Sequence record: PZ402301.1
DNA from: a phage
DNA: 64,000 nt
Strand: one strand, 5' to 3'
A program made the position numbers and the translations under genes. Below are positions 25,206-29,980 of the stretch, piece by piece (position 1 is the stretch's first letter; each line of letters opens with the position of its first letter). A model generated the notes under the pieces. It worked only from the letters and a program-made list of their open reading frames with translations. It had not been told where the DNA came from and did no database searches.

Positions 25206-25209
25206 CAAT

Positions 25210-25227
25210 GGGGACCGAAAGGTCCCC
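25210..25227. terminator. GGGGACC-GAAA-GGUCCCC hairpin between convergent genes 54 and alt.-3
   Basis: 7-bp GC stem with GNRA loop 5 nt after gene 54 stop, followed on plus strand by TATTTTTATTTA. Confidence 0.6.
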
Positions 25228-25233
25228 ATATTT

Positions 25234-25524
25234 TTATTTACGGAATGAAATAAAAGCAGAAACTGAAGCAACTAAACTGTCTTCAATATAAACTTCAATT
25301 TTTACTGGAGCTTCTGACTCAAATTTACCTGTTACTACACCTTGGAAAATACTTTCAGTCTGTTCTGGCTTTGAAAAATTTTCAGAAGGAAAAATTCCGA
25401 ACTTTTTATCTGTTCCAAAAATTTTGATAAATTCATCATAAACTGCTTCATTAAAAGCATTATCAGCAGGAATAACGCCTTCAACTACAAGTTCTTGACC
25501 TAAAAAGCGTAAAGAAGATTTCAT
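25234..25524 (-). CDS. alt.-3: hypothetical protein (positional alt.-3)
   Basis: 96-aa ORF with ATG and GAGGA Shine-Dalgarno; directly downstream of predicted early promoter. Confidence 0.7.
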   Translation of the reverse strand: MKSSLRFLGQELVVEGVIPADNAFNEAVYDEFIKIFGTDKKFGIFPSENFSKPEQTESIFQGVVTGKFESEAPVKIEVYIEDSLVASVSAFISFRK

Positions 25525-25531
25525 TTTGTGT

Positions 25532-25585
25532 TCCTCATGTTATGTCAGTAAGATTATTATAACACAATACGAGGGACTTGTAAAC
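25532..25585 (-). promoter_or_regulatory. early promoter cassette (copy A of 54-bp repeat): GTTTAC -35, 18-nt spacer, TATAAT -10, leader with GAGGA
   Basis: Minus strand reads GTTTACaagtccctcgtattgtgtTATAATaatcttactgacataacatGAGGaacacaaaATG; 51/54 identical to 41303-41356. Confidence 0.6.
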
Positions 25586-27642
25586 TACATCTTGAACTTT
25601 TTAGACATTCCGTTGATGTTAACCAAAGAAGCTAAGATTTGAGAAACTTCGTTTTCCTCTTCTTTTGATTCTTCTACAAGGAATTGATTAAACCCAGCCA
25701 TTGGACGAACTTCACCAGTTTCCATCAGATGATCGCCATCATATACCGATTCTTCTAATTGTTCAGAAGGAGGAACGATTGTACCTTCGATTAAATACTT
25801 GTTATAAGCAGTTTCTTTCATCATGTACGTGCTCACTTTATTAATCTTCAGCAAAATTCCACGTGGTAAAATAACTTCAGCTTCTGACGGAAATCCTGAT
25901 AAATGACCCGGAACGATAACTTTGATTCGCTCAGCTCCTTTAATTACCATACCTACGCTAGTTTCAGCATCTTCATTCGCATAAGCAGAATGACTGCCCA
26001 TATGCATCAAATCTTCTGCGTCAACTGAACCTTCTCCTTCACCAGAAAATACTGCACTGGAATCATCTAGAGCCATATAGTTTTTACCATACTCACCGAA
26101 GATATTTGGTTTAAGCGATGTGGATACGAAGTTCTTAAAATAGAACATTTTATTTTCAATATTATGACGTAAAGTTTTAAAGGTAACTTCTTGGCCACGG
26201 TAAAGCGTAGTTCCTGGAGGAAGAACTGATCCTTTGGCAAAAGCAGAATCCATCGTCTCGATGTGTTTAATAGCTCGTTCCATATATTCTTCACGAGTAG
26301 AATCTGGTTTACCCAAGAGGAACGAGTTCATTTCAACATATGAATCTGCACAATAATCTTCAATTACATCAGACTCAGCTTGAGTTAATCCTTTTGGAGT
26401 TACTTCAGTACTTGCATATTCATACGCTTGAGAAGCAGACTCATTAATCAATTTATAAACGCCATTCATGACAAATTGAACAATAGCTACCTTTTCATCT
26501 GGTGTGGCTTTAGAACCTTTAACTAAATCATTGACAATTTTCTTAATAACATCAAAGCTATTAGAAATATTAATGTCAGCAAGATCGCTTAAAATTTTAT
26601 CAGTTTTATAATCAAAAAATTCTTTATTCTTTAAATATTCTTGAGAACCTTGATATGTTATATCGCTCTGTAATTTAATAGATGGATCACGTAAACGCGC
26701 ATGGGCCAATGCAATATGATTTCGGAAGCTTTCTAGTTCATAATCACTAGATTTAAAACGAGAAGCACTCCTCATACCACCGATAGCTCCTTTGCTGAAG
26801 TTTGAACCAACCTGAATAACGCCGGAGTTCATTGGTCCTTCTGCTTTATATACCGGAACTTTAGATTCAAACTCTTGATATTTCTTAGCAGCGAAGCTAT
26901 CACCCTGAAGTGAAGCATCGACAGTAGAGTATTGAGCTTGTGCTGCTAATCGACGACTAATTTTAGTTTTCTGAATAACAGCTTGATCCGTACGCTTATC
27001 ATTTTCTAGAGCAATAGAAGCGGCAACAGCAACAGCTTTAGGAACAGCATTGCCTGTTTTAACATCTACATAAACATCACCAACCTTTGATTCAACCTTT
27101 GTGAATAACTCAGTTGAAATAGGAGGTACACCTGGAATGTCTTCTAAATTGGCATTTTTACGGTAAACCATAATATATGCATACTTTTTATCATAGTCCC
27201 AGATTTCCTTTAAAAGAACATATCGACCTGCTCCTTTAGTACGTACTAAACGGTCAGCAATAACTTGCATTTGACGAGTTGCACCGTTTGTTTTACTCTT
27301 TAGTACGCGGAATAGGCATGCGTCAATTTTATACTGTTTCATTGTTTGAAGAGCAGTATCAAAAACCGCATTAATGACACCAATTGGATTTCCACCCAAG
27401 TTTTTAAGTTTAACTAATGATAGTTTCTCATTAACACCTATCATTACAATATGCATCATTTTATCGCCTGGCTTAACGTTTTTATTTGTATCACCGCCAG
27501 AGGTGTATGTACAAAATCTAAATCCAGGAAGCACACTTTCTTCACCGGCTTGAATAGCAAAAATTTGAGGGATTTTATGCTTAGGATTTAAATTAACAAC
27601 CGGCGCCGAAGCGCCGTCAAATAATTCTGTAATAAGTTCCAT
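25585..27642 (-). CDS. Alt-like ADP-ribosyltransferase paralog (685 aa)
   Basis: Starts MELITELFD like Alt; N-terminal half closely similar to the adjacent 698-aa gene; C-terminal half has ART-like motifs (LYRGQ, FVSTSL, EAEVILPRG) but diverges. Confidence 0.85.
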   Translation of the reverse strand: MELITELFDGASAPVVNLNPKHKIPQIFAIQAGEESVLPGFRFCTYTSGGDTNKNVKPGDKMMHIVMIGVNEKLSLVKLKNLGGNPIGVINAVFDTALQTMKQYKIDACLFRVLKSKTNGATRQMQVIADRLVRTKGAGRYVLLKEIWDYDKKYAYIMVYRKNANLEDIPGVPPISTELFTKVESKVGDVYVDVKTGNAVPKAVAVAASIALENDKRTDQAVIQKTKISRRLAAQAQYSTVDASLQGDSFAAKKYQEFESKVPVYKAEGPMNSGVIQVGSNFSKGAIGGMRSASRFKSSDYELESFRNHIALAHARLRDPSIKLQSDITYQGSQEYLKNKEFFDYKTDKILSDLADINISNSFDVIKKIVNDLVKGSKATPDEKVAIVQFVMNGVYKLINESASQAYEYASTEVTPKGLTQAESDVIEDYCADSYVEMNSFLLGKPDSTREEYMERAIKHIETMDSAFAKGSVLPPGTTLYRGQEVTFKTLRHNIENKMFYFKNFVSTSLKPNIFGEYGKNYMALDDSSAVFSGEGEGSVDAEDLMHMGSHSAYANEDAETSVGMVIKGAERIKVIVPGHLSGFPSEAEVILPRGILLKINKVSTYMMKETAYNKYLIEGTIVPPSEQLEESVYDGDHLMETGEVRPMAGFNQFLVEESKEEENEVSQILASLVNINGMSKKFKM

Positions 27643-27645
27643 GAT

Positions 27646-29742
27646 TTATCCTTGAACGAACTTGTAAGGCATGTTTGTAATATCTATGCAAGACGCAATA
27701 ATTCCAAGAGATGATTCTACTTTCTGTTTAACATTTGATGAAACAAATGATGCAAAGTCAACTCTGTCTTCTATTTCAATATCACCTGTCATTGCAACTA
27801 CTTCACCAGTTTCCATTAGACGGTCACCGTCATAAATGACTGATTCGGTGAGTTCTTCCGTGGTCATAACTTCAGCTTGAATGAGTTTTGTATTATTAGA
27901 TGTTGTTCCGTCATTATTAGAAGCATCAGTTATTTTATTAACTTTGACCATCAATCCGCGTGGTAGAATAACTTCAGCTTCTGTTGCTATTCCGAGATTT
28001 CCTGGATATACAACATTAACTTTATGAGCTCCATCAATTGCCCATCCTATTTGAACTTTAACGTATTCAGGATTTTCTTTATACGCTCTTATTTCGTTTG
28101 GATTAATAGTTATTCCTTCTTCATTTTTATCAACTGTCAATTCATTACGAGCTTCTGGTTCTAAAAGACCAATACCAGCATGTGTAATTCCAAAACGTCC
28201 AAAAATGATAGGAGTTAAAGAAGTAGATACAAAATTTCTGAAATAGAACACTTTATTTTTAACTAGCGCTTCGTATATAGGAGCAGTCATACTTTGAGCA
28301 CGATAAACTGTAATGCCTTCTGGTATACGGTCACCGTTTTCAAAAGCTGAATCTAAGTTATTTATAGCAGATTCAATTTCTTTTTCACTCATTACATCAT
28401 ATCGTTCTGGATTGTAGCGTCCTAAAAGAAGATTATTGATGTCAGTATATCCTGAACCACAATATTCTCTAATGCCGCGCTTTTGCGATGGAGTATATTT
28501 AGAACCATCACGTGCAATGGTAATATCAATCATTGGACCTGCACCAATTCCAGAAAAGCTATAAATCATTCGTTTGAGGAATTTAGTTTTTGCTGCGTTC
28601 CAGGAATTTTTAGTTATTTCTTCCCAGACTTCATCTGGCTGTCCTTTACGGGTTTTATTATGTTTATCAAGCCAAGTATCTTTATATTCTTCAAAGAATT
28701 TATTAATAGCTGCTGCATACTTCTCTAAACATTTTATTGAAGTAGTTGGTTCATTTTTGATCGCATTAAGAATTACATCTTTAATTTTTTCAGAAACTTC
28801 ATTAACCTCACTTTTTGAAAAGAATTTATAGTCATAGTGAAGTTCATCTGCAGTCCCTTCAGCAATAATTTTTGCTGCCTTAGTTTTAGAAGCTAATGAA
28901 TTAATTCCAAGCTTCATTTCTTCTGCTTCGGGAATTAAAGGAGCTGTAGCAGGTTTATTGAAATTAGCTGCGGTAGATTCATATTTCTGGAATAATTCAC
29001 TTTCAAATCTAGAAGATTCCAATGACTGACTTTGTGCAATTGCTCTACGGGAAATTTTAACTTTAACGATTACAGCTTGGTCAGTGCGTTTATCATTTTC
29101 TTGTGCAATAGATGCTGCAATTGCCTCATTTTTAGTTACTTGAGCTCCAGTATCTTTATTGATATAAACATCGCCGACTTTCGATTCAACTTTAGTAAAG
29201 AGCTCGGTACTAATTTCCGGAACTCCTGGAATGTCTTCTAGTGATACATTTTTGCGATGTATAAGAATATATGCGTACTTTTTATCGTAATCCCAGAGTT
29301 CCTTAAGAAGGACGTATCTGCCACCTGAACGACTGCGGATAAGTCTATCAGCAATAAGTTGAATTTGTCGAGCTTGGCCAGCAGTTTTAGACTTAAGAAT
29401 ACGGAGCATACAGGCATCAATTTTATACTGACGCATCGTCTGCATTGCAACAGTAAAAACTGAATTGATATAATTAATTGGGCTTGGACCGAGACCTTTT
29501 AATTTAGCAATTGAACCTTTAGCAGTTAATGTAAAAGGAACAATATGCATCATTTTATCGCCCATCTTTAAATCGCGATTAGTATCACCTCCAGATGTAT
29601 AGGTACATAAACGAAAGCCTGGTTGTTCAATTGCGTCATCAACATGAACTGAAAAAATTTGCGGTATTTTCTTCTTTGGATTTAAGTTTGTAATCGGAAG
29701 AGTAGTATCTTCGTCAAATAATTCTGTAATGAGTTCCATCAT
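27646..29742 (-). CDS. alt: Alt ADP-ribosyltransferase, packaged internal head protein
   Basis: 698 aa; N-terminus MMELITELFDEDTTLPITNL matches my recall of T4 Alt (true start may be the second ATG at 29739); ART motifs VYRAQ, FVSTSL, EAEVILPRG. Confidence 0.88.
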   Translation of the reverse strand: MMELITELFDEDTTLPITNLNPKKKIPQIFSVHVDDAIEQPGFRLCTYTSGGDTNRDLKMGDKMMHIVPFTLTAKGSIAKLKGLGPSPINYINSVFTVAMQTMRQYKIDACMLRILKSKTAGQARQIQLIADRLIRSRSGGRYVLLKELWDYDKKYAYILIHRKNVSLEDIPGVPEISTELFTKVESKVGDVYINKDTGAQVTKNEAIAASIAQENDKRTDQAVIVKVKISRRAIAQSQSLESSRFESELFQKYESTAANFNKPATAPLIPEAEEMKLGINSLASKTKAAKIIAEGTADELHYDYKFFSKSEVNEVSEKIKDVILNAIKNEPTTSIKCLEKYAAAINKFFEEYKDTWLDKHNKTRKGQPDEVWEEITKNSWNAAKTKFLKRMIYSFSGIGAGPMIDITIARDGSKYTPSQKRGIREYCGSGYTDINNLLLGRYNPERYDVMSEKEIESAINNLDSAFENGDRIPEGITVYRAQSMTAPIYEALVKNKVFYFRNFVSTSLTPIIFGRFGITHAGIGLLEPEARNELTVDKNEEGITINPNEIRAYKENPEYVKVQIGWAIDGAHKVNVVYPGNLGIATEAEVILPRGLMVKVNKITDASNNDGTTSNNTKLIQAEVMTTEELTESVIYDGDRLMETGEVVAMTGDIEIEDRVDFASFVSSNVKQKVESSLGIIASCIDITNMPYKFVQG

Positions 29743-29762: not shown

Positions 29763-29770
29763 TATTTATA
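29763..29770 (-). promoter_or_regulatory. late promoter box TATAAATA (minus strand) upstream of alt
   Basis: Plus-strand TATTTATA = minus TATAAATA, 21 nt upstream of alt ATG; consistent with Alt being a late virion protein. Confidence 0.5.
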
Positions 29771-29777
29771 AAATTAA

Positions 29778-29791
29778 AGGCCCGAAGGCCT
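29778..29791 (-). other. AGGCC-UUCG-GGCCU hairpin at 3' end of small ORF upstream of alt
   Basis: 5-bp stem, C(UUCG)G tetraloop on the minus transcript, overlaps stop of 29792-29980 ORF. Confidence 0.4.
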
Positions 29792-29980
29792 TTAGTAATC
29801 TAGTGGTAAGAGAGTACGATATATTTCAAACTTTGGTCCTTTTTCATAGGCATCAAATGTTTCTGTAAATTTATTATAAGCATATGCATCTACAAATTCG
29901 AGAATGACTTGTGATACAGAAGTAGAAACATCTCCACCTTCTTTTTGAGCAATGACAATTGTTTCTAAGTAAGCTTTCAT
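29792..29980 (-). CDS. hypothetical small protein between gene 30 and alt
   Basis: 62-aa ORF whose ATG overlaps the gene 30 stop (ATGA), suggesting translational coupling. Confidence 0.6.
   Translation of the reverse strand: MKAYLETIVIAQKEGGDVSTSVSQVILEFVDAYAYNKFTETFDAYEKGPKFEIYRTLLPLDY

Follow-up and report, generated by a model that had tools for sequence, protein, structure and literature searches.

Tandem Alt-type ADP-ribosyltransferase genes of a T4-like phage are old paralogues with diverged catalytic halves, and T4 alt.-1 and alt.-2 appear to be a deletion remnant of the second

Introduction

What is a second full-length alt gene in a T4-like phage, and how does it relate to the single one of T4? 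To our knowledge, nearly everything known about injected phage ADP-ribosyltransferases (ARTs) comes from T4, which carries alt, encoding 682 amino acids (aa), then the small open reading frames (ORFs) alt.-1 and alt.-2, and no full-length second copy. The 64,000-nucleotide (nt) stretch of T4-like (Tequatrovirus) phage DNA analyzed here (sequence record PZ402301.1; hereafter the window) carries two alt-type genes in tandem, an upstream gene that we call Alt1 and a downstream gene that we call Alt2. The reading we favor, with a probability of roughly 0.7, is that Alt1 and Alt2 are two old paralogues of T4 Alt, both packaged, trimmed by the prohead protease gp21 and injected as ARTs, with Alt2 acting on different or overlapping targets.

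Tandem alt paralogues were noted in 2006, when alt duplications were described in RB49, 44RR and T4 (PMC1524935), and a 2026 genome paper reports two Alt-like paralogues of about 43% identity and proposes functional divergence and an expanded target range (PMC13600099). Both genes are labeled "Alt-like RNA polymerase ADP-ribosyltransferase" by RefSeq in many genomes. A preliminary description of the window, made from its sequence alone, therefore implied more novelty than there is, as the pair had been annotated in hundreds of genomes, T2 and T6 among them, and the idea of divergence is already in print (PMC13600099). The feature is an ordinary member of a known, already annotated gene family with a modest evolutionary story. 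Our analysis adds a reinterpretation of the T4 stump, selection on Alt2, synteny with Dhakavirus JS10, cassette exchange, fusion genes and a difference in the ADP-ribosylating turn-turn (ARTT) loop.

Results

The window pair lies within the gene order gp29, gp48, gp54, alt.-3, the two alt-type genes, alt.1 and DNA ligase (Table 1). ORF coordinates bear out the two minus-strand frames of 698 and 685 aa, 3 nt apart (TAA-ATC-ATG), of the preliminary description. Read from its first ATG, Alt1 spans 27646..29742 (minus strand) and begins MMELITELF from an ATG-ATG pair; the gene likely starts at the second ATG, position 29739, with a 697-aa product beginning MELITELF, because T4 Alt is annotated from the second ATG and a GAGG lies 6 nt upstream of that codon. 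The two proteins align by BLASTP at E = 2e-158 with 41% identity overall, distributed very unevenly: it is highest over residues 1-238 (68%), lowest in the central region (14%), and intermediate in the ART domain (35%) and the C-terminal tail (42%). The closely similar N-terminal part, put at 220 residues in the preliminary description, and the strong divergence of the catalytic halves are thus both real. All of the motifs it quoted are present (CTYTSGGDTN, RYVLLKE.WDYDKKYAYI, EDIPGVP.ISTELFTKVESKVGDVY, VYRAQ/LYRGQ, FVSTSL and EAEVILPRG), and the ART-like R / S-T-S / E motifs are kept in both proteins. Two sequence-level findings had been named there as speaking against such a pair, an Alt2 without catalytic residues and near-identical catalytic domains; we find neither.

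Family searches place both proteins with T4 Alt. PF03496 (ADPrib_exo_Tox) matches each above its gathering score (Alt1 E 3e-37, Alt2 E 2e-20), phrog_802 ("Alt-like RNA polymerase ADP-ribosyltransferase") matches each end to end (E 4e-272 and 6e-255), and PF26846 is recorded for the 98-99% identical database clusters of both proteins and for neighboring genes, so that both show the PF26846-then-PF03496 order of the T4 Alt family. An NCBIfam search gave no match for either protein. T4 Alt (gpAlt, NP_049811) occupies the same slot between alt.1/ligase and alt.-3/gene 54 and shares the late box, the four-part architecture, MELITE, an L-x-E C-terminal site, R / S-T-S / E-x-E and the families PF26846 plus PF03496 and PHROG 802; Alt2 differs from it in being 41% identical overall and 34% identical in the ART domain. 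The second Alt-like genes of T2 (YP_010073850), T6 (AXN58232), 6phi13/SHFML-11 and JS10 show no essential difference from that of the window.

Both products share a four-part layout formed by MELITE, a basic, T-even-type-specific N-domain of ~230 residues, a helical middle followed by an arginine-specific ART, and, directly behind an L-x-E site, an acidic propeptide that makes up the last 55-65 residues or so. The Alt1 N-domain is 99% identical to that of T4 and 68% identical to that of Alt2, and is modeled as an alpha/beta fold with a predicted local distance difference test score (pLDDT) of about 70-88. In its central region identity falls to 14% with Alt2 and 32% with T4, against 68% with the upstream copy of JS10, and the Alt2 central region is 43-58% identical to other downstream-clade copies. 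The ART domains and C-terminal propeptides of both proteins are acidic (isoelectric point (pI) 4.2-5.0) and both N-domains strongly basic; before processing, the full-length proteins are acidic as a whole, and in their predicted mature form they are near neutral to basic.

Several lines of evidence assign the C-terminal halves to the C3 / iota-like group of ARTs. In a phmmer comparison with Protein Data Bank (PDB) chains, the Alt1 motif TVYRAQ aligns with TVYRRS, the segment of CdtA and iota Ia that holds the catalytic arginine, and Alt1 GIATEAEVILPRG aligns with GYAGEYEVLLNHG of CdtA/iota Ia, which contains the E-x-E motif; the Alt2 sequence gave no match to PDB chains at E 0.01 or below. Foldseek with the Alt1 ART domain retrieves Vis, CDTa and iota at E about 3e-7. 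Across a 21-sequence alignment of several subfamilies, R482, S507, S509, E587 and E589 (Alt2 numbering) are invariant, and the window proteins thus combine an ART fold with the catalytic arginine, S-T-S and (Q/E)-x-E of R-S-E enzymes. E-x-E is the signature of the arginine-specific members of this group. The C3, iota-CDTa-C2-VIP2 and Vis ARTs share fold and catalytic triad with the window proteins at 15-25% sequence identity, and differ from them in lacking the long acidic insert after S-T-S and in delivery, which for Alt is packaging in the phage head as opposed to secretion or a B component. In binary clostridial-type toxins (iota Ia, CDTa, C2I, VIP2) an inactive ART-like N-terminal adaptor docks to the pore-forming B component; we found no support for the N-domain as an adaptor of that type. 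With T4 ModA and ModB the likeness is confined to the ART catalytic core, with E-Q-E aligned to E-x-E, and global alignment is meaningful over the ExE region only. ModA and ModB are early, non-packaged enzymes of about 200 aa, encoded in a different genome region and devoid of N-domain, helical region and propeptides, whereas the window proteins have 685 and 697 aa, extra domains and a late promoter.

The two ART domains differ systematically in the ARTT loop, which serves substrate recognition. An aromatic residue at turn 1, three positions before (Q/E)-x-E, is present in Alt2 (F583) and absent from Alt1 (Ile) and T4 Alt (Pro). This position is F or Y in every downstream-type sequence (GFPSEAE, EYPEEAE) and aligns with the tyrosine of CdtA in the phmmer alignment, a point in which Alt2 resembles CDTa; in the upstream type it is a non-aromatic I, P or Q (GIATEAE; APSNEME in T4). 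In the insert that follows S-T-S and in the helical region, Alt1 and Alt2 have next to nothing in common. These differences suggest distinct substrate recognition, with which they are consistent and of which they are no proof.

Both proteins carry gp21 site motifs at both ends. By mass spectrometry, processing of T4 Alt removes 6 residues at ITE-6 and 63 at LTE-619 (PMC5694885), and the mature protein of 68.2 kDa is present in about 40 copies per head (PMC5694885, PMC9026906). Alt1 and Alt2 have ITE-6 followed by LTE-632 and LEE-631, respectively, and the C-terminal sites align as ELTE|S in T4, ELTE|S in Alt1 (E632) and QLEE|S in Alt2 (E631). The P1 glutamate of both sites, E6 included, is invariant in the 21-sequence alignment, as are Y634, D635, G636, D637, E641, G643 and E644 (Alt2 numbering) of a YDGD-x-LMETGE segment just downstream of the C-terminal site. 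In AlphaFold2 models the pLDDT falls below 50 from residue 629 in Alt2 and from residue 644 in Alt1. The preliminary description was right that both proteins begin with the form expected of a prohead-protease site, although the predicted site is I-T-E6 and follows an [L/I]-x-E rule, not L-x-E. Predicted mature masses are 70.2 kDa for Alt1 and 69.1 kDa for Alt2, and the two would therefore co-migrate on gels. These features support gp21 processing of both proteins at the sequence level and are not proof of Alt2 packaging.

Alt2 is a constrained protein-coding gene under strong purifying selection and not a decaying duplicate. About 397 phage records carry it in intact form at >= 95% amino-acid identity, and the window and T6 copies differ by 87 synonymous and 20 nonsynonymous changes, which gives a ratio of nonsynonymous to synonymous substitution rates (dN/dS) of 0.06; dN/dS for Alt1 is 0.04. 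The tandem pair occurs in about 400 phage records, among them T2 and T6, which have an intact 697 + 685 aa pair in identical arrangement, and the window pair is about 97-98% identical to its closest records.

Whether reference T4 carries the second full-length copy had been left open in the preliminary description; it does not, and keeps a deleted stump. By blastn, the T4 alt.-1/alt.-2 stretch (NP_049810 / NP_049809) is 97% identical to the first 348 nt of Alt2, not of alt, and the same T4 region is 95% identical to the last 20 nt of Alt2 plus the downstream spacer of the window. The stump has lost 1 nt from an A-run; further on, at a 9-base-pair (bp) near-repeat (CTAAAGAGT / CTAAAAAGT), its sequence passes directly to the end of Alt2, and the two blastn segments overlap on this near-repeat. 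The alt.-1 and alt.-2 PHROG families match Alt2 residues 1-56 and 62-117 (2e-40 and 3e-38), and their matches to Alt1 are much poorer. Of the phage records that match an 81-nt probe spanning the T4 junction, 90 contain it in one piece and about 380 in separate pieces; the window has no T4-type junction. With its intact reading frame and dN/dS of 0.06, Alt2 shows no sign of being a remnant itself. Together, these data indicate that T4 alt.-1/alt.-2 is Alt2 after a ~1.7-kilobase (kb) internal deletion and a 1-nt frameshift, and not a partial duplication. GenBank describes alt.-1/alt.-2 as an 'old duplication of the first part of gene alt', to which these data oppose a deletion in the T4 lineage, and the T6 record describes its full second gene as an 'apparent insertion in alt.-2', which is the same difference seen from the T4 side.

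The duplication behind the pair is old. Between Alt1 and Alt2 the N-domain is 56-75% identical in protein, with saturated synonymous sites (proportion of synonymous differences 0.54-0.80) and dN of about 0.25; N-domain conservation therefore reflects selection, and we reject a recent gene conversion as the reason why the N-termini are so alike. The same tandem pair, with the same order and 3-nt TAA-NNN-ATG junction, occurs in Dhakavirus JS10 and in a divergent metagenomic contig. In this comparison the N-domains cluster by genome (65-68% identity within a genome vs 42-47% between genera) while the ART parts, and the helical regions too, cluster by gene position (57-72% downstream-downstream vs 32-38% upstream-downstream). 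The within-genome clustering relative to JS10 implies an older homogenization of the N-domains.

The upstream gene has had a history of its own. Alt1 and T4 Alt are 70% identical overall in a mosaic pattern, with DNA identity of 97-99% over aa 1-240 and 641-697 and of 44-71%, with saturated synonymous sites, in between, and we read aa 241-640 of Alt1 as a replaced cassette relative to T4. Over aa 241-600 Alt1 is 98% identical to T6 and 97% to T2. Its ART domain has 93% amino-acid identity to the JS10 upstream gene, compared with 65% to T4, and over aa 421-630 the identity to JS10 (locus L008, EU863409, 2913-4997) is 84-94% in nucleotides and 63-90% at third positions; elsewhere the gene is about 41-80% identical in nucleotides, with 41-64% in the N-domain and the C-terminal propeptide. 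This pattern indicates that the catalytic domain was exchanged between genera fairly recently, with the right boundary at the C-terminal protease site. Of the "duplicated" effector in the preliminary description, the two Alt-family genes stand, but the duplication is old, being saturated and syntenic in JS10, and the upstream catalytic part appears to be a horizontally exchanged cassette and not the outcome of simple divergence.

Natural recombinants join the two genes. Databases contain fusion proteins with an Alt1 N-terminus and an Alt2 C-terminus, with crossovers in contigs at Alt2 residues 43-54, 102-110, 174-192 and 212-224, and the cultured phages ECML-134 (crossover 147-158) and PST (98-102) have a single fusion gene. 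The fusion contigs have one gene between alt.1 and alt.-3. The longest exact match between Alt1 and Alt2 is 23 nt, which together with the cultured phages ECML-134 and PST rules out assembly artifacts as the source of the hybrid genes. Unequal crossing-over in the N-domain has thus collapsed the pair at least five times independently. Because such Alt1-N::Alt2-C fusions exist in nature, including those of ECML-134 and PST, the N-modules of Alt1 and Alt2 are functionally interchangeable.

Transcription of the pair most likely begins at one promoter. The late box claimed upstream of the 698-aa copy is an exact TATAAATA match (Table 1) and stands in the same place in six loci (the window, T4, T2, T6, L005 and L007), in line at the motif level with the late transcription of the T4 Alt family; T4 alt is a late gene (PMC9697503). 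There is no separate late box directly before Alt2. A second TATAAATA lies inside the Alt1 coding sequence at 28359-28366 (minus strand), ~720 nt upstream of the Alt2 start; it is confined to the T2/T6 allele and absent from L007, JS10 and T4, which disqualifies it as a conserved Alt2 promoter, and it may be fortuitous. The last codons of Alt1, CAA GGA, and the TAA stop (27646-27648) supply the Shine-Dalgarno sequence of Alt2, and a CAA GG(A/G) TAA ribosome-binding site ends the upstream gene in the window (27643-27654, minus strand), L007 (4320-4350) and L008 (4982-5012). The stop-NNN-ATG spacing is conserved between tandem alt genes across genera and also before the T4 stump. With its Shine-Dalgarno sequence in the last Alt1 codons and a spacer of 3 nt, Alt2 is probably translationally coupled to Alt1.

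A GC-only hairpin with a UUCG tetraloop near the Alt2 start forms in the minimum-free-energy fold; T2, T6 and the alt.-1 stump of T4 have it too, whereas the downstream copies of L007 and JS10 and the hybrid genes lack it. The surrounding 111-nt region is not significantly structured as a whole (fold z = -1.25), and the local hairpin still forms. A terminator, an attenuator or an mRNA-stability element are possible roles for it. The promoter of sigma-70 / T4-early type directly after the Alt2 stop and before alt.-3 marks the 3' limit of the late alt unit.

The PF26846 N-domain is a small family, with 69 clusters among 1.84 billion proteins, and its occurrence is restricted to Alt-like proteins of T4-like phages, in which it forms the N-terminus. 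Ten atypical or shorter members were scanned; seven have PF03496 above threshold and three have no Pfam match, and the truncated P0122 among the atypical proteins has a sub-threshold partial PF03496 match. P0183 (485 aa), a distant member, has lysine in place of the catalytic arginine (LYK) and a shortened ART domain and looks like a degenerate ART; P0184 (541 aa), also distant, has the N-domain, no recognizable ART domain and no Pfam match, and may carry a different payload; P0186 is a 221-aa fragment without a Pfam match. With 69 clusters in all, and PF03496 in seven of the ten members scanned, the N-domain as a general delivery module for many payloads is unsupported.

Among the neighboring genes, alt.1 (62 aa; 29792-29980, minus strand) matches Pfam PF24647 'Phage_blade' at E 2e-29 and overlaps the end of the ligase gene by 4 nt. 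In the interval between gene 54 and alt.-3 (25208-25229, both strands), T-runs flank a 9-bp stem with a GAAA loop, a structure that resembles a bidirectional terminator serving two converging units (gene 54 / alt.-3). T4 mutants with a C-terminally extended Alt.-3 have been reported to escape the CmdTAC defense system (PMC11618068).

Table 1. Coordinates of the tandem alt genes, their predicted parts and nearby elements in the window
Feature	Position	Strand	Remarks
Alt1, upstream gene	27646..29739	-	697 aa plus stop; T2/T6-type allele of T4 alt
Alt1 N-terminal propeptide MELITE	29722..29739	-	identical to T4 Alt; predicted gp21 cleavage after E6
Alt1 N-domain, aa 7-238	29026..29721	-	PF26846 Tevenvirinae_ADPRT; basic, pI 9.5
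Alt1 central helical region, aa 239-415	28495..29025	-	all-helical in AlphaFold2 model
Alt1 ART domain, aa 416-632	27844..28494	-	ends L-T-E632 (27844-27852)
Alt1 R480	28300-28302	-	ART residue
Alt1 S505-T-S507	28219-28227	-	ART residues
Alt1 E587-A-E589	27973-27981	-	ART residues
Alt1 C-terminal propeptide, aa 633-697	27649..27843	-	acidic, predicted disordered; aligns with T4 Alt 63-residue propeptide
Alt2, downstream gene	25585..27642	-	685 aa plus stop; full-length form of T4 alt.-1/alt.-2
Alt2 N-terminal propeptide MELITE	27625..27642	-	identical to Alt1 and T4 Alt; predicted gp21 cleavage after E6
Alt2 N-domain, aa 7-238	26929..27624	-	PF26846; basic, pI 9.7; recombination substrate for Alt1::Alt2 fusions
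Alt2 central helical region, aa 239-415	26398..26928	-	all-helical in AlphaFold2 model, pLDDT 77-92
Alt2 ART domain, aa 416-631	25750..26397	-	F583 = ARTT turn 1; ends L-E-E631 (25750-25758)
Alt2 R482	26197-26199	-	ART residue
Alt2 S507-T-S509	26116-26124	-	ART residues
Alt2 E587-A-E589	25876-25884	-	ART residues
Alt2 C-terminal propeptide, aa 632-685	25588..25749	-	acidic, predicted disordered; conserved YDGD-x-LMETGE
Alt2 segment missing in T4	25605..27303	-	about 1.7 kb; flanked by CTAAA(G/A)AGT at 27295-27303 and 25596-25604
T4-type late promoter box TATAAATA	29763..29770	-	exact match; 23 nt upstream of Alt1 start codon
UUCG-loop hairpin, terminator-like	29775..29794	-	terminator scan; ends alt.1 unit, just upstream of late promoter
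GC-only 6-bp stem, UUCG tetraloop	27601..27616	-	terminator scan; Alt2 codons 10-15
Sigma-70 / T4-early-type promoter	25556..25584	-	TTTACA, 17 nt, TG-n-TATAAT; 11/12 consensus positions
alt.-3	25234-25524		DUF5498

Discussion

The features of the locus are consistent with the following course of events. Alt1 is the T2/T6 allele of alt with an exchangeable ART cassette, and Alt2 is a separate conserved lineage. Both genes would be co-transcribed late, most likely from the box at 29763-29770, and probably translationally coupled. By homology with T4 Alt, both products would be built into the prohead core, trimmed by gp21 at both ends to about 70 and 69 kDa, and then ejected with the DNA to ADP-ribosylate host proteins in the first moments of infection. 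Because the ART domains are ~35% identical and the ARTT loop, post-S-T-S insert and helical region differ, the host proteins that Alt2 modifies most likely form a set different from that of Alt1, or one that overlaps with it. Co-transcription, the packaging and cleavage of Alt2, enzymatic activity and distinct targets are what we infer from these features.

Several observations weigh against this account. The ARTT-loop differences hint at different substrates and fall short of proof, and a targeting role of the MELITE propeptide or the N-domain is only putative for Alt itself. In T4 the propeptide has been shown to act as a capsid-targeting signal for IPIII, not for Alt (PMC9026906). Literature searches gave no virion proteomics, biochemistry or other experiments on the second (685-aa) copy. 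T4 and about 90 related records have lost Alt2, which is therefore dispensable, at least on laboratory hosts, and fusion phages keep the Alt2-type catalytic half only, so a single Alt is enough for viability. A strong GC hairpin, located 26 nt into the coding sequence of Alt2, could restrict expression of the gene.

These observations bear on three other explanations of Alt2. It could be a redundant spare with the targets of Alt1, kept for dosage or as raw material for recombination, as might fit two proteins of the same architecture with the same catalytic motifs and E-x-E arginine signature, of which T4 and about 90 other records do without the second and fusion phages carry one gene. We consider this unlikely, since the ART domains are ~35% and the helical regions 14% identical, the two lineages are distinct and syntenic across genera, the turn-1 residue of the ARTT loop differs systematically, and strong purifying selection acts on each copy separately, which is unexpected for a merely redundant duplicate. 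Somewhat less probable still is an active Alt2 that is not injected with the virion and acts late in the producing cell on host or phage proteins. A place in the late transcription unit, a hairpin early in the gene that might give separate regulation and the lack, in our literature searches, of proteomic data placing Alt2 in virions would suit such a role; yet Alt2 keeps the propeptide, N-domain, gp21 sites and C-terminal propeptide of a packaged protein (PMC5694885), its N-module is naturally replaceable by that of Alt1, and the N-domain family is confined to the N-terminus of Alt-like proteins of T4-like phages.

The idea that Alt2, like the T4 stump, is a pseudogene in decay or a copy without catalytic activity is highly improbable, and the sequence already contradicts it. 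In T4 this gene is frameshifted and internally deleted, and the distant family member P0183 has a lysine for the catalytic arginine, but in the window the reading frame is uninterrupted with all catalytic residues, dN/dS is 0.06 and ~397 records are intact. Two injected paralogues thus remain our preferred explanation. More tentatively, and with somewhat less than even odds, Alt2 is a second injected effector with host targets of its own, possibly defense or toxin proteins, and alt a polymorphic-effector locus. Alt is reported to act on MazF.

For the biology of these phages, T4 is a deletion variant at the alt locus, and most sequenced Tequatroviruses, T2 and T6 among them, encode a second, well-conserved Alt-type enzyme. 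If Alt2 has its own targets, the standard model of T-even host takeover misses a component that T2, T6 and most wild relatives possess, and Alt2 could help explain why T-even phages differ in how they take over the host or in how sensitive they are to bacterial defense. Alt1 and Alt2 would then also be a natural pair for mapping how the ARTT loop, post-S-T-S insert and helical region determine ART substrate choice. If the wider account is true, a fixed, lineage-specific delivery frame formed by the N-domain and two propeptides has its ART cassettes swapped between genera and reshuffled by unequal crossing-over. Cassette exchange and natural fusions show an N- and C-terminal frame that tolerates different payloads, which is relevant to protein delivery by T4-type heads.

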